Shown piece after piece: positions 2,347 through 34,657 of a stretch of DNA of 36,121 nucleotides. The translations under genes were made by a program, and so were the position numbers. The stretch is from Catajapyx aquilonaris (Eukaryota). The stretch is from contig JYFJ02003943.1 in NCBI GenBank assembly GCA_000934665.2, positions 1 to 36,121 on the forward strand, in the 5' to 3' direction. The notes under the pieces were generated by a model. It had not been told where the DNA came from and made no database searches. It saw nothing but the letters and a program-made list of their open reading frames with translations. Numbering within the stretch: the first letter of the stretch is position 1; each line of letters opens with the position of its first letter.

Positions 2347-5300
2347 ATGGAGACCGTGGCTGATAAAATGCCGTTTGAGAACCTGAGCAAGCTGTGTGAG
2401 AAGATGAGCACAGGCAGCAAAGAGAAGAGGAAGGAGTACCTACATAAGTACATCAATTACTTTCGAAGTTTTTATGAGGAGATGCACCGAGCACTGTCTG
2501 TCCAGGTACACACGCTTCTACTTGATATTTAAAAAAAATATTCACAGTATATATATTTTTAAATGAACCTGAATATTTTTAAAATGTGTTTACAGGGCGA
2601 CAGTTTCTTTCCGGTATTGCGACTTCTTGTACCACAACTGGACCGTGAACGTGGTGCGTATGGGATCAAGGAGCACACCCTGGCCAAGCTGTACATTCGG
2701 ATTCTGGGATTGGACAAGGAAAGCAGCGACTCCAAGAGACTATTGAATTATAGATGAGTATCGGTGTGTTGTGTTTGTGACGGATTGAGCCAACCGTCTC
2801 ATACATAATTATGAAACTGGTCGTCCTTTTGTTTTTATCTCCCCGACTTTTTCCCTTGTGTGTTGCAGGGCTCCGAAAATGGCCAAAGGACATGCAGGAG
2901 ACTTCGCTGATGTGGCATACCAAGTTTTGAGGGACCGGTGTGAATCAGGAGGGAAATTGACCGTGAAAGATGTCAATGATAAGTTGGACGCATTGTCCGC
3001 CAGCCATGCCAGCAAGGAGCCAGGTATTTGTTGTTAGTGTTGTTGTTGTTGTTTAAATAAAGAAGTGACAAAAATTAAGACAAGTGACAAACCATCTGCA
3101 AATGGACGAAGCGTGCGAAGTCACTTTTGTCGTAGAGAGACTCAATTTATGTTAATTCCTGTGATTATTATTTTCACTAGTCTAAAACTTCTGGAGGAGT
3201 TAGTGATTGTTTAAATAATACAAATTAATGTGGCAAGTAGATATCACTAGTTTGAAACTTTAGCTACTGTATAGGAAAAACTTATGCTTTGCTATTGTTA
3301 CGCAGCGCAGGTGCTGCAAAAAGTGGGTCAAATAATGCCATTTGAAGAGTGGTCTTTAAAATAACATGATTATGCCACAACGAAGCGGAAAGATTGTTCT
3401 ACGTACAATTTCATGCACATTCCATTGAATCTACATCCATTAAATATTTACTGCATATGGAGCGTTTTCATATGAGGAGACAAAATTGCCAGTCACCCTG
3501 ATTGAAATTATCATCGCATCACTTGCTGCTATGACTATTGTTTTCTCTATCACTCCAGAACAATTCTTTTGGTGAATTATCAGCTTTTAAAAACTGTTTC
3601 ATGTTGTTCAGGTGAGGTGGAGCAAAATCTGCAGACTCTGCTAAGGAGCCTCTCTGCTCTGGAGCAGAAATGGCTTATCCGAATAATCCTGAAAGACATG
3701 CGACTGGGAACGGGCCATGGAGCTATTCTTCACGCGTTCCATCCTGATGCAAAGGAGCTCTACGACGTTTGCAACAACCTTGATAGAGTAATTTCGCTAA
3801 GTATACTTATTATTCCCTGTACCACAACACCTTGAGATATAATTACTCGTATAGGAGTGTTAATCAAATTATGCGATTGTAAACTAATGGTTATGATTGT
3901 TGTGTCTACCACCGTGTAGATCATTTGCTTTATGGTCCAAGTTGACGTCAATCTCTTGGGAATAAGACGCCGTTTGCGCACTTGCTTCATTACCTGCTTT
4001 GCATTCAGGTCTGCGTCACTCTCTTCGACCCTTCCGTACGCCTTCACGAGGCCGAAATCAGCCTCTTCACTTCAATGCGCCCAATGCTGGCCGACAGAGG
4101 TGTCTTCAGCCAAGTCGAAAAAATGTCAATAAAACCTTTCTATGTAGAGACGAAATTCGATGGTGAAAGGATGCACCTTCATATGGATAAGACTCAGTTC
4201 AAGTACTTCTCAAGGTTAGTCGTACAGACACATCAGAATGTCATGGTGTCTCGTTTCGCCAAATCTGACATTTCAGGAATGGATTCGACTACACAAATGA
4301 CTTTGGGAGTGGAAACAGTGCCGGTGGGACTCTGACTCCTTATATTCGCGACTTGTTTAGTCCCAAAGTCGAGAGCTGCATTCTTGATGGCGAGATGGTT
4401 GCATGGCACAAGCGCACACACACCATCACTACAAAAGGTGTGTAACCGCACCGCATGTTTGTACTTGAATGTCCCCAAAAACAAACACATCACATTTCGC
4501 AAAACATATAGGCGAAAATATAGACGTCAAGAAGCTGAAATTGGATAGCGCCCACCAGCCATGCTACTACGCATTCGACATACTGTACTACAACGGAAAG
4601 GTTCTGACCAACATGCCGTTAATGAGCCGGCTTAAGTACTTGCAAGACTTATTCAAAATTGAAGAAGGCAGGCTGCAGGTATCAGAGAAGAAGGAAGCCA
4701 ACACAAAGTGAGTTTAACCATAAGCCATCGAGTGGTGCATGAAGCAGTGTTTTGAGTGCGTTTGCATCTTCAGGGAAGACGTAATTAAAGCCCTTAACGA
4801 CGCAATTGACAACCGGGAAGAAGGAATCATGGTGAAGGATCCGGGATCTGTGTACAAGCCTAATGCAAGGAAAGCAGGATGGCTTAAAATTAAGCCAGAG
4901 GTGATTTTGAATGATTTTTATGAGCACTGAGTTCATAATTCCAAGAGCAGGTGAGGTATTGTCCATTCCAGCAACCAGCTGATTGCTGTAATGAATGATC
5001 CGCAACTTCTCTTACCTTTTGGCTTGTTACTGTTCAGTATTCATATCAAGGGTCTCACCTTCTAGTTTTGTTTCTCAGTACACCAACGAGTTGATGGATC
5101 AACTGGATCTGATAATTATGGGAGGATATTATGGGATTGGGCGTAGGCGGGGAGTCGTGAGTCATTTTCTGCTGGGATTGGCAGTGCCAGGTCAATCAGG
5201 GGAACTCCCAAAAGAGTTCCACTCTGTTGGCAGAGTCGGATCAGGATACACAATGAATGAACTGGACGATTTGTTGAGGAAGTTGTCTCCTAATTGGAAT

Positions 5301-7891
5301 GAATTCAGAAAGGGCAGCCCCATGCCTCCAGGATTGGTTTGGACCAGAGAAAAGCCTGATGTTTGGATCGAACCGAAGTACTCCAAAATAGTCCAGGTTC
5401 GTTAGGTTACAGTCACAGACTTATTGACAACCAGACCGAAAAATATGTGATTAACTTTCTTCAGATTAAAGCTGCTGAAATTGTCAGCAGCGATCTATAC
5501 AAGGTTGGATACACGCTGCGTTTTCCACGAGTCGAGAAAGTACGCTATGATAAGTCATGGAACGAGTGCATGACAACTACAGAGTTCATGGACCTGAAAG
5601 AAGTGAGTCGCTGTATATACTCAGATAATAATTCTGTTTGTGCAGACAGCCCCTACTTACGTAGATCCGGACTTACGTAAAAATCCGACATGCTCAAAAC
5701 CATCTGTGGAATTTACGGATTTACTGGGAATATAAACTACAGCATATTGTGTCATTTAAAAAAAAAAAAAAACGCAAAATTCGTCTTAGGTAAAATGTTC
5801 TACTTACGTAAGTCGGGGCTGCTTGTATTTTTTCAAAAAATACCCTTCAATCTCAAGAGATCCCGAGTCCAATCCCGGTGTCGACACTTTCGACATGTTC
5901 TATTCATGGCCGCAATTGCGCATCTTAACGGGATTAATATGATTTCAGCAAGGTGAAGGAAAGTTAGGTACCCGCCATTACACTGATGACTTTGGAGAGC
6001 CGTCATCTAAGAAGCGCAGAGTGACAACGAGGCAGTATAACCAACCAGCAGGGCTTGCTGACCACTTCAAAATGGCAGATTTATCTGATCTAAAGCAGGT
6101 GGGGCTCAAAGAGGGAGGAAAATTTACCATTTATTCTACTCTTATTTTTTAAATTAAAGGAATCGGTGCTTTTAGCGGGTAAATCATTTGTGATATTAAA
6201 TGGACCAGAAACTCATAGCAAGCATGAGCTAGAAAGACTTGTAGTGCAGTACGGAGGGACAGTGGTGCAGAATCCAGGTAGGAGTGTTTTGGCGTCTGTT
6301 TGTGTTTGCCTTGACCCCAGTTCCAACTCGAATTGCAAATTACTTTAGGTCCAAAGACCTATGCTGTTATCGCCGAGAGAACGAATGTGAGAGTGAACAA
6401 TATTATCGGCGTGGGTTTGCACAATGTCGCCAGGGCTTCGTGGCTTTTGAGGTGCATTGAAAGACGGCGCTGGATCGACTGGGCTCCGTCAGATCTTATG
6501 TATGCGACTGAAGAGACGGAAAAAAAATTGTCAGAAAATTATGACGAATATGGGGACAGTTATCACCAACCGGCTACAAAGGAATCGCTGAAATATTCTC
6601 TGGAACTCATGTCCAAAAAGGTTTTAGCAGATTTGCTTAACTGTACATAATTTTTTTGTAATGCACAAATATTTTAGGGGCCTTTTCCTGCACTGACTAC
6701 CTCTGAAAAAATTGCTCTTGAGGAAGAGCTTTTTGGAGGACCCAGCCCATACGGGTTTATGCGACCCTGCTGTATTTACCTGGATTGTTATTCTGAGGTA
6801 AGTTTTTCGCTCAATCCCTAAGTGCATTACAATTGAAGTGTGTTTCGTCTCACAAACAATATCCATTAGTAGTGGAGCAATAATTCAATAGAGTTGAACA
6901 TTAAAATATTCTCTGAAAGGCTACAGGCTATGCCTGAGTGTCCATTAAATTAAATTAATATTAGCAGCAAATATTTTCAATGTCCTAATAAAATGACCGT
7001 GTAAGTAACCATTTCATAATGAGCAACCCACTGCGAAAAATCACTTCCTGAATCAATTGTAACACAACACTGCACACACATGCATGCATGAATAATAATT
7101 GGGCTTTAAATAATGTCAATGGCTTATATTACGCATGCCATTATTTAATTATTCATTCAAATGAGGTGGTTTGAACGACGTAAATTTTGTACATCAAGTA
7201 TTTTTTGGTGGCTGTTTATATGAGCCAAGAGGGTAAATGCAGTGGCAGTGATGGGATGCAGTCAAAAGTAGCTGGGATTTATGTCAAAGTCGCCGTAATT
7301 GAGGACACTAATGGCCGGTAATTTTGTAATAAAGGGTTAGGTCACTTAGAATACGCGATTGTGTTTTTTTTCCTTTTGCCACCCAGTATGACTCCCCTCT
7401 CGATTTTAATGACACACATGGGGAGTTTGTATGAACTCCGCTTTTTAAAGCTATACGCATCATGGGGAAAATATTCCCCCAAATTATGCAACTTATGTGT
7501 ATGAATATACTGTGCAGTAAATTTTGATTCAATTTTACGCGAATTTTGCAGATAGGACAAGTTGACAGCCGGATCGAAAACTGTGTCCTAGATGGCGACG
7601 AACAGTTAGGGAAATTTTATGGGGCTGAAGTAGTAACAGAGATCACTGATCAAGTGACACATGTCGTTGTCAGTATGAGGCAAGTTTTCAAAAATGAGGA
7701 CAATCATTGCATATCCAAAGACGTAATATGTGTTTCCTTACAGGGACACCTCGAGGCTCCATGCACTGAAAGAAATTAATCGTTCCCGAGCAAAGAAATT
7801 TCACCTGGTGACATCTGAGTGGATCGACAGCTGTGTTAACTCGCGTCAAGTATCAGAAGAAGTCAGTTTTTTCCCAACTGAATCAGATTGA
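2347..7891 (+). CDS. LIG4: DNA ligase IV (NHEJ ligase), 16 coding exons, about 909 aa
   Basis: Exons assembled by hand: 2347-2505, 2596-2753, 2869-3023, 3612-3787, 4009-4214, 4277-4437, 4512-4707, 4774-4900, 5079-5396, 5465-5602, 5949-6098, 6160-6277, 6349-6620, 6678-6797, 7552-7679, 7744-7891 (2730 nt, all phases consistent). Motifs: DBD ([16 protein letters not shown]), adenylation motif [26 protein letters not shown]-fold GSGYT and LRFPR, and two C-terminal BRCT-like domains. Intron 2 has an AT donor and intron 15 a GC donor. Confidence 0.97.
5643..5825. mobile_element. pogo/Tigger-like MITE in LIG4 intron 10
   Basis: Imperfect ~22 bp TIRs, CAGACAGCCCCTACTTACGTA ... TACGTAAGTCGGGGCTGCTTG, with TA on the right side. 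The ACTTACG subterminal repeats are typical of Tigger-type ends. Confidence 0.6.
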
Positions 7892-8037
7892 GCCAGGACA
7901 CTTGCTTGCACAGTTTGGTCACCTGGACGTACTGGTGTTCACTTTAAAATGCAATAATAATTCATGCATAATTATTCTGCTTGACTTTGCTGTGTTTTAG
8001 TCTAGGTCAGCATGTATACCAGATAAGCGTCTGAAGA

Positions 8038-10588: not shown

Positions 10589-10661
10589 GTTTCCGTGGTG
10601 TAGTGGTTATCACATCCGCCTAACACGCGGAAGGCCCCCGGTTCGATCCCGGGCGGAAACA
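10589..10661 (+). tRNA. tRNA-Val-AAC: tRNA-Val, anticodon AAC
   Basis: 73 nt cloverleaf with acceptor stem GTTTCCG/CGGAAAC, A box TGGTGTAGTGG, anticodon loop CT-AAC-AC and T loop GGTTCGATCC. A Pol III terminator TTTTT follows at 10663-10667. Confidence 0.98.
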
Positions 10662-11429
10662 CTTTTTAAAAAAAATTTAAACACTCAAAAAAATATGGCC
10701 AACTTTTCGGTATTACGAATCGTCCTTGCTGCAGTACAACTTCCCAGTGTCAAATAATAAATTCAGCTGCGTACAATTTTTATATTCTTGTAGTATAGTC
10801 ACTACAGTGGGCTTGATGATATAACCCGGACTAAACAGAGGATGTGCACTTTCCAAATAGGACCTCCAAGTTGATAAGAGCCGGAAGGTGTAGCGATGTG
10901 TGACCCCCGCAGCATCCAGCAGATGGCGACGAAGCGACCTGACACGTCAAAAGGGGTCAAGTGGCCATCAGTCGCGGAAACCAAGAGACATTCCTGGTCA
11001 CACCGCTGCAGCTTCCGTCTCGTGGGGTGTCTGTGCAGAAGAGTGCGCATCATTGCCGAGGGATGACCCCCCGACAAGAAGAGGCCTCTTTGTGAGGCCA
11101 TTGAGAGGATGTGCCTGGGAGAGGATGACTCTTGAGGATGGGACTGGAGATGTGTGGACCCGTGAAGCGTGACAAAAGTGCCGACAGCATGCGCTTGGAA
11201 CGCCACGTGGTTTCCATCACCCACAATGCACGATCCATGGGGGAGTGTCATACACGGCATGGATTTCATGCACTTCTACTTTACACCGCTCGTGCCAGGT
11301 TGGTTGTTAGGGACGGTTGTCAACAGATCTGGTACAATAATTTTCAAATGAAAATTGCACCAGAAGTAAAAATGTGAAAAGTAAAAATTATTGCCTAAAA
11401 CAATTATTATTTGTTGCCTTATTTTGCGA

Positions 11430-16939: not shown

Positions 16940-17363
16940 GTGCTAATTAAATGCTTGGAATCCAGTTCTGACGACTCTATAAGTGAAAGCAACCTGAGGC
17001 AATATTCCGCTGTTTGTTTTCAATGTGTCGTGTATGATTGCCAAGAGATGAGTTGGGGTGCTTAAAATTTTTACGCAAAAAAAGGGGGTACACTGAAGGT
17101 ACAGCAAAAAGAAGCAAGAGGAGGAGTCATATGAGACTAGGGATAGCAGATGGTTCAACAGAAAGCCCGCTTCTATTTTCGGGGGTCCCTCCTCTCTACT
17201 TGCCATTGGACCAATCGGAGAGAGATTTTTGTTCCACGTGGGTGGCGAAACTCGCATGTTACCTCATGTATTGTTATGGCTCTTCTTCAGTGTGTGCTCA
17301 TGCTTTGAGTGATTCGAGTGTTCCTTGCCCGAAATATATTTTGGCCAACTTATAGGATACCAA

Positions 17364-20300
17364 ATGAGTGACTCGACTCATGATGACCTGCCCAAAAGCA
17401 AACCGGAGAAGAAGATGGGTTCCGGTCCCAAAAGCCCCAGACGACTCCTGAGGACCCCTAAATGTGCCCGGTGTCGCAACCACGGGGTCATTTCTTGTCT
17501 GAAGGGTCACAAGAAGCTGTGCAGGTGGAGGGAATGCCAGTGTCCCAACTGCCTTTTGGTGGTGGAGAGGCAGAGGGTCATGGCGGCTCAGGTGGCCCTT
17601 AGAAGGTCAGTTTTTGGTCAGGTTTTTGGGGTTGTTGAAGGATTTGACCGTTGGTTTGTTTTTGTAGGCAACAGTCGTCTGAGGATAATAGCAAGGATGG
17701 ATCGGCTAAGCAGAAGACGGCTGAAGCGTTGTTGGCACAGAAGAAGTTGTACCAGAAGCACTTGAGGACATTACAGCAGAGCTCGCTAGCTAGAGAGATC
17801 CTTCAAAGTAAGTGGAATTTGCTCATAATATGTTAATGCGATGGCGGGTAATTAATTATTTTGAGCTTTGACTCTTCCATATGAAATGTGACGCTTTGAT
17901 GAGTGACATTAATAAGTGTTAAAATTATCCGATCAATTAGAGTGCGACGTAATAGGCGGAAAATGTTCAGAATTGATTAGTTGAGTCAAATACAGGATAT
18001 AATGTAGATGGCTTCTATTTACTTGGTCCGTAATATTTTTGGCGGATGGCCACTGACAGTGTCTACTAGAAAAGTGAAATCTCATGTAAAATATTATGTT
18101 CTTAGCTGAGAGACAGGGGTCGAAGTGTAGCGGATTTACAATTTTCTCAGTTTCAAATATCTGCAGAGGGAACCGGAAATAATATTTTAATTGCAATTTT
18201 GTGGCATTGATATAATTATGATGTTGAATTTTTGAGTCCATATTGTTTACTTAATAACTTACTGACATTAATGAACTTCATGAGTAATTATTTTCGCACA
18301 AACGAAGTGTTATAAAGGGATCACACCATAAAGCTCATTAAATGTCAGTTTAACAAGTGTTACTCAAATATTTGACTTCATCCGTCAGTGTCATAAAGAG
18401 CGATATTACAGTACATGATTTTAGGGCTCTACAGGCTTGCATTGACATTAAAACCGGAAAATTACAAAGTATACCCTGAACCTTGCATTTCCGATGCTAA
18501 GAAGTAATATTAACCTATACAAATATCAATAGCTACAAATTAAGCTACACATGCTGCATCCAGAGAGTGTCGGGACAAGGTCGAAATTCGAAAAAACGAA
18601 TTACTTTCGCTAGTTAAACACGTGACTTTCACTAGCGTGAAATTCACTACGCTATAGTGTTCACTTTCCCGTGATTGTTTGAAATCCATAATGCGTCTGA
18701 GAATACGATGTTCGCTAATGAACTGTTGATTTGTGACATTTATGCTTTGCTTGAAAAAGTGGGCTAAGGTCACTGTTGCTGTGATTAAATGACTATCTGC
18801 TAAGTTCTCAGTAATGATCAAAGGGTTTAATTTTCTAAGCGACCACAGAAGCACAAAATCCGATTTTTAATGCTTCAAACGAACTCTCTTTATCTAAAAG
18901 GGGAAATCTTCAGGTTTGTTAAATCAAAGGATGTCGCGTGCCTGCTGAGCCTGGAAAACGCGCACAATTATTCCGGTCAGTTGCACATAAACGCTTCATG
19001 TCAAATACAGTAAATTATCACGTAATCCGAAGCGACCATTTCAGCGAGATTCAGATCAAATAAGAGCAGGATTTTCAATGCCAGTAATGTCCATGAACCT
19101 TACTTTAGGTAAATCTTACACTAAGAGAGTAGCATATGTTATTAATTATTGAATCGCCTAATCGAACAAATATAAATCATTTTGCAAATTACTTGCATGG
19201 AATACTAGGCGTCATAATTATTAAATTATATACATTGTTAGGATTCCTTGTTAGTAATTTTTTCTAGTGTTGGATAGAGTAAGATATTTAGTTTTCTTGC
19301 AAGAAACTTCTTCCTTTCAAAATGTTGACAACCCAATGCGGCCTGCGACAAATTGTAGAAAAATCACGCCTCATCTGTACACAGTGTTTTGGTGCGGAAG
19401 TGCGTATATCTGGTGGTGTTCCTATGCTGAAGTTTGGGGGGAAGGGTCTCTTGGAAACCCGATGCTGGGTCGTAAGAAAGATGCCGAAATCTGTCCCAGG
19501 AGTCGTCTTCCTCGCTTGACCCCCAGGGCTCGTAAAAAGTCCCCCTCCCCTGCACCAAGGCCTCTTCCTTTTGCCTGCCCATATCTTCCTTCTTCTTTCC
19601 CTTCCCTTGCGTTACTTCCTTAGACTAAAGGCATCTGGACTGCAAATGACCATTAACAGCTTCCCCAGTTTTCGGAGTGATGGATGCCTGGAAGTAAGGG
19701 ATTCATATCTGGTTCCTCTTCGATGAGAGACTCTTGCTTCCCGGACATGTTACCACACATTGGATTCTTCTCCGTCTCTCTTTGGGTGGCAAGGCGCCTA
19801 TGCTGGACTAGTCAGCACCTCGCTCTTGATGGGCTTTCCACCGAATAGTTTAGGCAGGAATTCAGAGAGGTTGTCTACTAAGTAAACGCGCCGTTTATGC
19901 TATTGTGGAATGGCACCCAATTACAATTTTAAACTATTCATAGGCAGTGTTTAACATTGCTTTAAGCAAATCCATAAATAGGATCATAAATCATGCACTT
20001 GCGGACAGAGTTTTGAATATGTGTAGACTATTTTTTTGAAGCTTCATTTGAATGTAATGCAAACAATTGATAAGCAAGATAAGTAGGGTCGTCATAACCT
20101 ACCGGCATTTTATACCCCGTCTTATTCTGTGTGTATAACCGTAGTGACCTACTTTTATTATAATGTACGGTACTTGTATAAATACCAGTCAGAGAATTCA
20201 TATTTGATTCTATACCGTATTACTCCTTTTGCAAATAATGCAAATAATAGATAAGTAGGGTCGTAATCAGATTAATTTTATATACCATGTCTGTGCTATT

Positions 20301-21334
20301 GTGTATTCTGTACGAAAGCACAGACCTTTACTACAGTCTACTGTATATAGATGTAAGCCTACCTGCGTGGGAGTATTGATACTTCACTCTTACTGCTTTG
20401 ATAACTTTGTACTTTAGAAACTCCGAAAGTAGGGCATCTTATTTTTTGTACCCTTTCTTTTTAGCATCTTCTCTCTTCCGGGCTTATATACTGAGTGCAA
20501 CACAAAATGGGAATAACGATACTTTGCCAATTGGATTATAAACTTTGCCAATTGGATTATAAACTTCAAACTTGGAATTAGATTGGCAATGTGAACTGGA
20601 TGGATTCGGCAAATGTACTTACAACGAGGCAAACAAAAGCAATCTCTGTTTCTCTGTAAAAGGGGTATAGTTAGCTCTATGAGTTACCATAGGCCTATAC
20701 GCGCTATACGTAGTAGTGTACATGTAATTAAATGTCATACATTTTGATGTGTCATTTTCGATCATGTAGCGGTAGATCATGATGTGCACATTTCCTCTCT
20801 TTTCCATTGAAACAATGGCATGTTTGTGTATTTTCAGGTTATCGTCAGCGTTCCCTCCGCCTCCCGACGCACGAGACTCTCCGCGGGGCCATGCCTTACA
20901 TGAGCGAGCGTATGCGGAAAAGACGCGCGTTCGCCGACAAGGAGCTGGACGTGGTGATGATGCATCGGGAGTGGGAGGCCCAGCTCCACCGCCTGTCCGT
21001 GGCCCGGAGGCCAACCATGTTCTCGCCCGTGTGTCTGCCCCAGCACCAGGTGGCCCCGGAGATGCCCGCCAGACCGCATCCTTACCACCCTTTGGAGGCG
21101 TCCTGGGGAAGGACTGTGGAGAGGATGGTGGCCGGACTCACCCTGGCCCCGACCTACGCCCCGGGCCCGACCCAGCCCCAGCCCGTTCCCCAGTTGACCG
21201 CCCCTTTGTGGAGTTACTATGTGGCCCAGCCGGAGGTCAAAGGTCAGTCAACGCCAGTGGCTAAAGTGGAGGAAAAGGCGGACAAGAAGCCCAGGCTGTC
21301 CTTCTCGGTCGAGGCCATCATTGGGAAAGTGTGA
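17364..21334 (+). CDS. dmrt11E: DM-domain transcription factor of the Dmrt2/Dmrt11E class, 3 coding exons, about 292 aa
   Basis: Exons 17364-17605, 17668-17807 and 20838-21334 with canonical GT-AG introns and consistent phases. DM domain [60 protein letters not shown], Dmrt2-class motif [15 protein letters not shown], and C-terminal eh1 motif [15 protein letters not shown] at 21424. The start may lie in an upstream exon (acceptor at 17355). Confidence 0.93.
20055..20310. repeat. Degenerate two-unit tandem duplication (period about 172 bp) in the long Dmrt intron
   Basis: AGATAAGTAGGGTCGT occurs at 20077 and 20249. Each copy is preceded by TAATGCAAA and followed by TATACC...TGTGTAT. Confidence 0.65.
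20521..20566. repeat. Perfect 21 bp tandem duplication
   Basis: ACTTTGCCAATTGGATTATAA repeated twice. Confidence 0.9.
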
Positions 21335-31347: not shown

Positions 31348-32056
31348 GTACACATCTTCTTTCCAATCTGTTATAATTATCCGGATTAACTGTAATAATA
31401 AGAATAATAATAAATGCTACACTGACTTTGGCAACAAGCCAACAAGCTAATTTAGTTCCCTTTGTTCCTAGGGATAAATTATGTATTTTATTGTACTGTA
31501 CAATGTTGAGCAATGTTTTCACAACCAAAAGGTAGAGACCTGATGGTAATGCAGTACACAGTAAGTGTAGTAACCAAGCACAGCAATGACATTATAAGTG
31601 TGCTTTAGAGAAACCCGGAGAAACCTATCCCATGTACCAGTTTCTGTGATTTGACTCTTCGTCTCTGTTGCAGGTAACTCAATTTCAAATTTGGCTTGAA
31701 TCAGGTGCGGCACTAGTGTGTATCCTCGAGGGACAGATGGTGGGAGGGTAGAGAAGCACCTGTACCAAGGGAGACAACGGCTGGAATACTTCTCGTTCTG
31801 TTCCTTCGTCTCTTCGCCTTTGCTATTATCATGTCTCCACACCATCTGCACACAGGGGGAGGATCCTCTGACCTCTCACCAGGCCCTGTGACCTGCAGCA
31901 ACAACATTTGGAAGTGACTGGGTGGACACAAAAGCACGTATCTCCAAGTCTCAGGCAAGTCAATCCGGGCATAGACTCTGTCAGATCCACCTTGGCCAGT
32001 CGCATGTAGTTATTTTCAAAAAAGCATTCTGAATCATGTCATTCATCTTGCAGATC

Positions 32057-33544
32057 ATGCCAAGGAGAAGGCAACCTCCCACTCTCCGTGCCTCAAGCCT
32101 GCACGCTTTGGCCAACTTCATACTGGACTGGTGCAAAGAAACTGATGGAGAACAAGAAGAGGAGATCCATCAGTATGTTCAGGAGATCCCATATACATTT
32201 GCAAACGAATATGTCAATGAGGTCATTCAGCTGTATTCGAGAAGGAGGTATTACTTTGACATTACTAGTGCTTTTCATTCCAAGTGTACCATGATTAACG
32301 AAAGGGATGAATGGGACTTTTCCGGTTCGTCTGTGGAGATCGCGGAGGAGATCTTGTGGGGTCTTCATGTCATGAGAGATTTGATCAAAATTGGGATTGA
32401 GCTATGGCTAAGTGAGGAATGGAAAGATTATAACTTCCCCAAAATGACCAACCTGCTCTCAGTTAAGGTTTCATTAGGTGCCAATCCACAGGTCTTGGAA
32501 CAATTTATTGAAAACTGTCCAATCTTGGAAGATATTGAAATAGATGGTATCGGTATTGATGATGGAATGCAATCCACATTAGCACCTCTCTCGAACTGCA
32601 AGAATCTGAAGAGAATTTTTGTTTATGGCATGACTCCTGAAGTAGCAATATACCTGCTTGACCATCTTCCCAATTTGGAGGTATTGCACATGAAGACTGA
32701 TTGTATCGGGAAAGTTCTTCCACTGTGCACACGTGCTTATCGGTTGAAGGATTTTACAGATGAGCTGCATGTATGCGACATTGGTTCTGTGCAAAAGGTT
32801 GTGACCCATTTTCCATACCTTGAGAAGCTGACCCTTCTGGAAGAAAATGTGCATGTAAATTGGATTGGTGAACTAGTCTACCTGAAGAGCTTAACAATAT
32901 GTGACATGACATCTTTAAACCTTCTTTACCTGATGGACAAATGCATGTTTGGTCTGCAGCATTTAGAATTGTACCATGTTACTGGCCTTGATTATCTCTT
33001 CAGACAAAACATGAATGTGGCATACCCAAATCTCGAGTGTCTGACCCTAACTGTGTGCACTGGCATTAATGTGGCAGGAATCAGGCAGATTTTTCCAAAT
33101 CTAAAGTCTCTTTATCTATCTGGTGGTGAATACATTGCACATTCTCTTCCATTTAAAATGCCACATGCTGGATCTGAAGCACTAGAACAGTTGCATATTC
33201 GCGATGTGCCATTGCCACAAGTGAGGTGTCTCATTCCCTTCTGTAGCCAATTGAAGAGTCTTCATGTGTCAAACACATCTGTCGAATCCTGTGTTTACGA
33301 ACTTCTCTGTAATGCCAATCTGAAGGAGTTGCGTAAACTGCAGGTGCATGACGACAGAATGAAAAGGGAAGTGATTCCAATCATTTTGGATTCATGTGGA
33401 GAGTATTTGAAAAGGGTTCACTTGCGTGGTAGTGAGCTGATTCTTTCACCTGACCATATCCATGAATTGTCTAATCAGCTTCAGAAATATGATATGCATT
33501 TCTTTATCAATGATTCAAATGTATATGATCCTCACTTTATTTAA
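32057..33544 (+). CDS. Leucine-rich-repeat protein (RNI/FBXL-like repeats) with N-terminal BC-box/Cul2-box-like motif, about 495 aa, intronless CDS
   Basis: Longest ORF in the window, with repeated LxxLxL units (CPILEDIEI, CKNLKRIFV, LPNLEVLHM, FPYLEKLTL, YPNLECLTL, FPNLKSLYL, CSQLKSLHV). An acceptor TCTTGCAG| ending at 32053 makes ATG 32057 (MPRRRQPPTL) a more likely start than ATG 32036. Confidence 0.85.
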   Translation: MPRRRQPPTLRASSLHALANFILDWCKETDGEQEEEIHQYVQEIPYTFANEYVNEVIQLYSRRRYYFDITSAFHSKCTMINERDEWDFSGSSVEIAEEILWGLHVMRDLIKIGIELWLSEEWKDYNFPKMTNLLSVKVSLGANPQVLEQFIENCPILEDIEIDGIGIDDGMQSTLAPLSNCKNLKRIFVYGMTPEVAIYLLDHLPNLEVLHMKTDCIGKVLPLCTRAYRLKDFTDELHVCDIGSVQKVVTHFPYLEKLTLLEENVHVNWIGELVYLKSLTICDMTSLNLLYLMDKCMFGLQHLELYHVTGLDYLFRQNMNVAYPNLECLTLTVCTGINVAGIRQIFPNLKSLYLSGGEYIAHSLPFKMPHAGSEALEQLHIRDVPLPQVRCLIPFCSQLKSLHVSNTSVESCVYELLCNANLKELRKLQVHDDRMKREVIPIILDSCGEYLKRVHLRGSELILSPDHIHELSNQLQKYDMHFFINDSNVYDPHFI

Positions 33545-33651
33545 CTGGATTTAAATGATGGGAACCTGAGATATAATAATTGCAGTGTCAGTGAACTTCA
33601 ACAATACAAATGCAGCTGTACAGTGTATTCCAGGTATTGGGGTCCTTTTTG

Positions 33652-34617
33652 CAGGGTTGTGAACCGAACCGAACCCTTGCTCCATGAACCCGATAACATC
33701 GGAGCCACTCCGGAGAAGTAGAGCCGGGTCCGGAGCGAGCGTCGGAACTTGGTTCGGGGGAGAGTGGAGCCAAGGTCGCAGTGGGTCCGGACTTCGGCTG
33801 GGAGCCTGCCAGCTTGCTCTGGAGCATGGTTTGGGCCAACGCCTCCGCAGTTGAACCAGGTTCCGGAGGGGGGTTCGGAGTGGTTCAGAGCTTGGTTAGG
33901 TCCAACATACCAACGCAACGAGGGGAAAGGCTGAAAAACTGCTGGATTTACTCCAGCATATGCATCATGTTTTCATGGTGCCAGAATGACATTTCCAAGC
34001 ACCTGCGATACAGAGTGTACCGCAAAATAATGTCGCATTTTTATGTCATCTGCATTTGTTGTATGTCACATTTTCATGTCATACCCATTTTTTGGATGTC
34101 ACATTTTCATGTCATACAGATTTGTTGTATGTCACGTTTTATGTCATACGCATTTTTTGTATGCTACAAAATGATATTGTAACATACAAAAAATCCATAT
34201 GCCATGAAAATGTGACATACAAAAAATGGGTATGACATATAATAACATACAAAAATGCGTATGACATAAAAATGTGACATTTGCGGTACACCCTGTATCG
34301 CGGGTGCTTGGAAATGTCATTCTGGCACCATGAAAACATGACATATGCTGGAGTAAATCCAGCGGTTTTTCTGCTTTCTCCCCCGTTGTGTTGGTATGTT
34401 GGACCTAACCAAGCTCTGAACCGCTCCGAACCCCTCTCCGGAACTGGGTTCAACTCCAGAGGCGTTGGGCTGAACCATGCTCCGGAGCAAGCTGGCAAGC
34501 TCCCAGCCAAACTCCAGACTCGCTCCGACCTTGGCTGCGCTCGGTCCGGACCCGGCTCTACTGCTCCGGAGTGGTTCCGATGGTATCGGGTTCACGGAGC
34601 AAGGGTTCGGTAACAAC
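33652..34617. mobile_element. Foldback-like long inverted-repeat element (~960 bp) with internal ~33 bp tandem repeats
   Basis: 33656 to ~34165 is the imperfect reverse complement of ~34180-34617, with almost no spacer. The inner parts are arrays of ATGTCACATTTTCATGTCATACxCATTTTTTGT-like units (4 forward, about 3 reverse). The left end reads CAGGGTTGTGAACCGAACCGAACC (hAT-like). Confidence 0.85.
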
Positions 34618-34657
34618 TAAAGCAACCTCTATAAACATGATATGGAGGTTGCTTTAG
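34617..34657. repeat. Small palindrome abutting the right end of the foldback element
   Basis: CTAAAGCAACCTCTATA-AACATGA-TATGGAGGTTGCTTTAG. Confidence 0.8.

Follow-up and report, generated by a model that had tools for sequence, protein, structure and literature searches.

The window, a stretch of 36,121 nucleotides from Catajapyx aquilonaris, is the whole of one contig (C2105) in an assembly of 285.6 Mb and 20,583 contigs. It carries a LIG4 gene on the forward strand (2347..7892), which we delineated with an exon model, PDB matches and Pfam. The model has 16 exons and 909 codons without internal stops, and its product (909 aa) aligns end to end with P0001, a protein named LIG4, at 48% identity over 910 columns. 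Full-length similarity, the ligase motifs, a Pfam DNA_ligase_IV match in the frame of exon 13, and the LIG4-specific C-terminal part identify the gene as LIG4. It is the sole copy in the assembly, which holds no backup paralogue. The original prediction had described the rest of the reading frame as intact and the gene as free of decay, and the complete model bears this out.

Among the 15 introns of the model, 13 have GT-AG ends, one has GC-AG ends and one has AT-AG ends. The two non-GT donors belong to introns 2 and 15. Intron 15 (7680..7743, forward strand) has the donor GAG|GCAAGT and ends in AG. A spliced joint at 7677^7742 in the sequencing run X5 slides to these ends, and the donor has strong U1 flanks (7 Watson-Crick pairs). 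Five runs cover the stretch, of which four are DNA runs from one sample and the fifth, X5, comes from another (S2); we examined X1, X3, X4, and X5. No run is recorded as RNA, but X5 behaves like RNA: it contains eight spliced LIG4 joints from intron 4 onward, the GC-AG intron included. Hence, LIG4 is transcribed and spliced downstream of intron 2 in sample S2. The cover of X5 begins in the 3' part of exon 3 (2869..3023, forward strand, matching human LIG4 from about residue 114) and is nil in 2200-2802, a range that includes position 2754. Genes with Ku domains are open in the assembly. A Pfam search of the assembly for XRCC4 gave no match, and its control was also blank.

Several other elements lie in the window. 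Upstream of LIG4, at 299-435, there is an inverted repeat with arms of about 50 nt each, MITE-like by eye. Within intron 10 of LIG4, at 5641-5830, a repeated element has inverted ends, and contigs from other loci align on 5641-5684. A tRNA-Val(AAC) is located at 10589-10662. Two open reading frames (17313-17765 and 20783-21334) make up a DM-domain (Dmrt) gene, the second being probably its last exon; the Pfam DM match is in the first only. At 32033-33544, on the forward strand, a single ORF of 503 aa has weak LRR matches. It is followed at 33551-34657 by a repeat of several hundred bases in direct and inverted copies, visible as recurring ORF text.

Splice joins available to intron 2

Exon 2 (2596..2753, 158 nt, forward strand) matches residues 62-112 of human LIG4 and ends in phase 2 of an Arg codon. 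Its last bases, TAT AG, are followed by ATGAGTAT, in which A is position 2754, an in-frame TGA occupies 2755..2757 and the next GT lies at 2758. Intron 2 (2754..2868, 115 nt, forward strand) thus has AT..AG ends, where orthologous introns start with GT, and its acceptor, TGCAG, ends at 2868. If the intron is retained or the GT at +5 is used, translation would stop at about 106 residues. The TGA at 2755, being in frame, deprives the GT at 2758 of any use as a donor, as the original prediction had pointed out from the sequence.

We enumerated the joins from all GT, GC, GA, GG, and AT donors between 2620 and 2860. A single join keeps the length of the protein, from the AT at 2754 to the AG at 2868, and no GT or GC donor in this range gives a join that is in frame, free of stops and of the same length. 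The nearest GT-AG join to this acceptor (2691 to 2868) would cost the protein 21 conserved residues, and a transcript without exon 2, which measures 158 nt, would be out of frame. A GA donor at 2753 keeps the frame solely when joined to sites within exon 3 (for example 2888), which lack a pyrimidine tract. The junction 2753^2869 can also be slid to the left, to GA..CA or AG..GC, neither of which is better than AT..AG. Since exon 2 aligns with human residues 62-112 and the third residue of exon 3 aligns with residue 116, the join requires no indel against human LIG4, and the collinearity with LIG4 that the original prediction had proposed is confirmed. The distance from the tyrosine to the GDF motif is 11 with this join, the commonest value among homologues (20 of 35). 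Ten protein fragments include a single residue beyond the conserved aromatic and then end, the pattern that an intron at this place would produce whether it began with A or G. Exon-2 protein searches (5/20 candidates; 2/2) returned no spliced product of this organism, which is a weak test.

The original prediction had also noted a second acceptor, an AC at 2846-2847 that is in frame and would add seven residues. Such an acceptor does exist, and would make intron 2 a U2-type AT-AC (AT-AC II) intron. It lies ahead of the AG, after 25 pyrimidine-rich bases, C being a known partner of A at +1 in the published catalogues (PMC1557818, PMC8283771), and loops of such length occur in a few fungal-type homologues. 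However, this join fits the homologue pattern worse than the join to 2868. It would place S after the conserved aromatic, a position occupied by R or K in 134 of 143 homologues, and would bring the distance to GDF to 18, against 9-13 in 33 of the 35 Y/F-type homologues. The G at -3 is also a poor acceptor context. The AC belongs to the motif CCGAC (2843..2847, forward strand), whose A, at 2846 and 23 nt before the intron end, is one of the two candidate branch adenosines that the last 47 nt contain and may serve as the branch point; other candidates are at 2837 and near 2808. We thus regard the AC acceptor as an unlikely alternative and retain 2753^2869 as the candidate join.

The base at 2754 and the age of the intron

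The peculiarity of the intron depends on one letter, and a G at 2754 would make a near-perfect donor. The contigs of the three DNA runs examined (X1, X3, and X4; 20-33x, one sample) all have A at this position and show no other letter. The same runs differ from the window at 2476 (E44K), 3424 (intronic), 5309 (R523R), and 7610 (G838V), so that variable sites do show. A base-call error, which had been proposed as one explanation, is therefore very unlikely, and we give a true G at 2754 hardly any weight. The assembly may have been built from the same DNA runs, but they were assembled separately and all three have A. The claim that intron 2 begins with AT is thereby borne out.

The zygosity of the site is less firmly settled. 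Contigs of runs drop minor alleles, and if the sample was a pool, a G at low frequency could escape notice at 2754. In a simulation where the site is heterozygous and the assembly represents the pooled majority, the three runs match with a chance of about 0.24. Homozygosity of A2754 is thus favoured by about 4:1, no more. If the site is homozygous, A2754 sits on two distinguishable haplotypes, since the variable sites 2476 and 3424 flank the donor.

These data bear on the possibility that a recent G-to-A mutation of the donor, be it heterozygous, common in the pool or homozygous, has left the allele with no useful full-length LIG4, because retention or use of the +5 GT stops at the TGA. The DNA comes from one sample, in which a heterozygous site would produce the pattern of the three runs with the chance given above. 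The RNA-like run X5 comes from another sample and does not cover 2754. Missense changes account for two of the three coding variants seen, but both (E44K and G838V) affect positions that also differ in P0001, and no decay is visible across the 909 codons. The variant at 7610 is also carried by X5. A dead LIG4 allele could persist, since Lig4-null flies are reported to be viable (PMC8755683).

To trace the history of the intron, we compared 20 related loci from metagenomes, of which 11 have the intron, four read through the site and five could not be evaluated. The 11 intron-bearing loci consist of eight near-identical ones, representing one lineage, and of L033, L034, and L035, hence about four lineages. 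In all 11 the intron interrupts the corresponding codon at the same place, after its second base, starts with GT and has U2-type sequence, with donors such as GTGGG, GTAAAG, and GTAAGA. The acceptor is in the same register in six of the seven orthologous introns where it was examined. Judging from these sequences, the intron is old and its AT is derived from GT, since all 11 recovered orthologues start with GT. The same fact is what a recent inactivating mutation would also leave behind.

The orthologous donors are equally informative about the minor spliceosome. In the published catalogue, AT-AG introns mostly belong to the U12 type (PMC1557818, Table 2), and the assembly contains two U11 genes, a sign of the minor spliceosome. 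Yet the donor, ATGAGTAT, has neither the ATATCC nor the RTATCCT signature, in agreement with the original prediction, no U12 branch motif with its A was seen by eye in intron 2, and the orthologous donors are U2-like. Intron 2 shows no sign of U12 ancestry in these sequences, and its removal as a U12-type AT-AG intron is highly improbable.

Donor strength and the possible removal of an AT-AG intron

The non-canonical donor (TAG|ATGAGTAT, 2751..2761, forward strand) has A2754 as its sole position that does not pair with U1. The nine flanking positions measured all pair (seven Watson-Crick pairs and two G-U), the best result among the 15 LIG4 donors, and the predicted fit to the U1 consensus apart from +1 is thus upheld. 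With a G imposed at +1, the duplex would reach -12.5 kcal/mol, compared with -3.6 to -10.8 for the other LIG4 donors. At the other end, the pyrimidine tract (2819..2865, forward strand), measured as the last 47 nt and ranked over the LIG4 introns, is the richest of the 15 (0.77, with two A), and no AG occurs between 2790 and 2866. Both measures, flanks and tract, were selected with the site already known and compared with only 14 controls. The GC donor of intron 15 is also among the best-pairing donors of the gene and exhibits the same compensation; a strong U1 match has been described for GC donors in general (PMC1557818). From the sequence, the surroundings of intron 2 look reinforced for U1 pairing. 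In its features, the intron agrees with the U2-type AT-AG class: genomic A at +1, AG at the 3' end, an intron position defined by homology, a U1-type consensus outside +1, a pyrimidine tract and YAG.

Chance would rarely place an inactivating mutation on the one donor of 15 that has the best U1 flanks and the richest tract, whereas a mutation that the gene tolerates would be expected there, and this weighs against a null allele. The GT version of the donor context (YAGGTRAGTAT) occurs at most 442 times genome-wide, counting both strands and including background. If the genome is assumed to have more than 50,000 introns, this is less than 1% of donors, although other donors of equal quality make up a wider class.

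AT donors are not visibly a trait of this lineage, nor are they common here. The AT context (YAGATRAGTAT) occurs 502 times (control 401) and its GT version 442 times (control 499), both at background. We sampled the first 80 listed of the 502 AT sites and 40 of the first 44 listed of the 442 GT sites, leaving out four that lie on U1 genes, and scanned with Pfam all 119 upstream frames open for at least 22 codons, a procedure of low sensitivity. Three of the 80 AT sites had Pfam hits, all reading on through the site, compared with five of the 40 GT sites, of which three have a stop within 13 codons, L144 stays open and L153 is the fifth. Hence, in this insensitive test, none of the 80 sampled AT sites was a recognisable exon end, against three to five of the 40 GT sites. 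Seven of the 80 (L067, L084, L095, L106, L110, L117, and L120) belong to a dispersed repeat family with a U1-complementary look-alike of the AT donor.

Compensation by a variant U1 with a changed position 8 is ruled out among the U1 genes found. We scored 42 candidates, and the ten full-length matches all have the canonical 5' end; three further matches are divergent or lack the 5' end. One divergent U1-like sequence below the Rfam cut-off (C8311:1341-1501, minus strand) has a U1-like 5' end about 17 nt upstream of the match, with a changed position 9; it may represent an snRNA variant or else a pseudogene.

We put at about even the chances that intron 2 is a leaky AT-AG intron of the major spliceosome, and consider it likely that the AT donor works in some form. 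What we observe is the A at 2754, an intact gene, orthologues with GT, reinforced flanks and a canonical U1; the join itself, its spliceosome and its frequency are inferences. In this scenario, the first base of an old GT-AG intron of LIG4 would have mutated from G to A within this lineage, and the major (U2) spliceosome would still remove the intron at 2753^2869, probably inefficiently; such a donor might then limit the output of the NHEJ ligase, as the original prediction suggested. Ordinary U1 would bind via the other ten of the eleven donor positions, the 3' end of this short intron would be set by the CAG and the long pyrimidine tract, and the unfavourable A..G combination of its ends would be tolerated part of the time. 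Correct joins would yield full-length LIG4, and transcripts with an unspliced intron 2 or a join from the +5 GT would run into the TGA and be unproductive. The single-copy gene with its intact frame of 909 aa, the open Ku-domain genes and the splicing of the downstream exons in S2 are consistent with a working donor. Of the outcomes raised by the original prediction, a functional donor is favoured over a null allele by the compensation and by an intact, expressed, single-copy gene; the null allele nevertheless keeps a sizeable minority share of our belief.

Published experiments give reasons both for and against efficient use. In human reporters, an AT donor fully complementary to U1 was spliced at +1 when an enhancer was present, with +5 as a side product, but almost no splicing occurred without enhancers (PMC6280755). 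In the human RNA-seq clusters of the same report, AT donors were secondary sites only, and secondary sites averaged 4-11% use (PMC6280755). A-G termini account for 0.003% of human U2 introns (PMC8283771), and a G-to-A change at +1 normally blocks splicing unless the last base of the intron becomes C (PMC1557818, PMC8283771).

A different rescue, absent from the three readings of the original prediction, has a published precedent (PMC4176328): ADAR would convert A2754 to inosine in a hairpin of the pre-mRNA, and the resulting IU donor would be spliced like GU. Three human AT-AG donors show A>G, one of them U2-like (PMC4176328), and inosine is reported to support the pair of intron termini (PMC8283771). 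Genes with an adenosine-deaminase domain, some of which may be ADARs, are present at four loci; one (C3271:19704-21020) is intronless, with an open frame of 617 aa, and the three other family members bear introns. The donor lies at the base of a predicted imperfect intronic hairpin (2753..2822, forward strand), where A2754 pairs with U2821. The z of this hairpin, about -3.1 to -3.2 in a hand-picked window, lends it weak support, as two of 14 control donors nearly equal it (-3.0 and -2.7) and the folding of the whole intron has a z of -1.0. A2754 is in a terminal stem of 3 bp and paired at about 0.6, and the best distant duplex of this donor is the weakest of the 15. G is the least favoured 5' neighbour for editing. 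The base before A2754 is G, and the 5' neighbour is described as the one that matters most (PMC3113232). Editing of the donor is therefore improbable, to about the same degree as the AC acceptor. Slightly less probable still is a regulatory version in which LIG4 is gated at its donor, by editing of A2754 or by an enhancer that licenses the AU donor, before full-length mRNA can be made; editing would then tune the choice of double-strand break repair by tissue or condition.

Relation to known non-canonical introns

Should intron 2 be spliced, it would be an obligatory member of the U2-type AT-AG class, occurring naturally in a repair gene that has one copy. It would then show how far a long tract and strong U1 pairing bring the major spliceosome past a poor termini pair, at a junction broken by standard annotation. 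Should the allele be null, the animal carries a dead NHEJ ligase allele. Spliced or null, the knowledge of splicing would be unchanged, and only the editing-gated version would surprise a specialist. We found no account of an AT-AG intron in LIG4 in the literature, with limited coverage of subscription papers. The class, rare U2-type AT-AG introns, is already known, and the LIG4 case is new to it.

The closest relatives are the human U2-like AT-AG, or hybrid, introns, such as that of C14orf37 (PMC4176328; PMC8283771, Table 1B), which share the A at +1, the AG end, the U1-type consensus and the derivation from GT. However, the human cases are reported to be mostly alternative or secondary, whereas the predicted AT join of LIG4 is the sole gap-free route to the protein of a single-copy invertebrate gene. 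The AT-AG intron of ACTR10 (PMC4176328, PMC1557818) resembles it in a lineage-specific G-to-A change at +1, being GT-AG in other species, but is listed as U12-type, a class that tolerates A..G ends, while intron 2 of LIG4 has U2 signals. The AT-AC II introns of SCN4A, SCN5A, and TAF2 (15 in human and 3 in fly; PMC1557818) likewise have a +1A donor of the major spliceosome with a strong match elsewhere. These introns, however, terminate in AC and are shared by different species (PMC1557818), in contrast with LIG4, where AG fits the protein best and the orthologues are GT-AG.

Editing-dependent sites, in which AT-AG becomes IT-AG (PMC4176328, Table 2), are alike in their genomic AT donor, predicted duplex and deaminase genes, but the duplex of LIG4 is weak and not above controls. 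Finally, the GA donors of Eurytemora affinis, associated with a C8U variant of U1 (PMC7072748), are a likeness in that they are non-canonical donors of an arthropod. They are genome-wide in that species and a variant U1 has been proposed (PMC7072748), whereas in the genome studied here all ten full-length U1 are canonical and none of the 80 sampled AT sites is a recognisable donor, which sets intron 2 of LIG4 apart from such a system.
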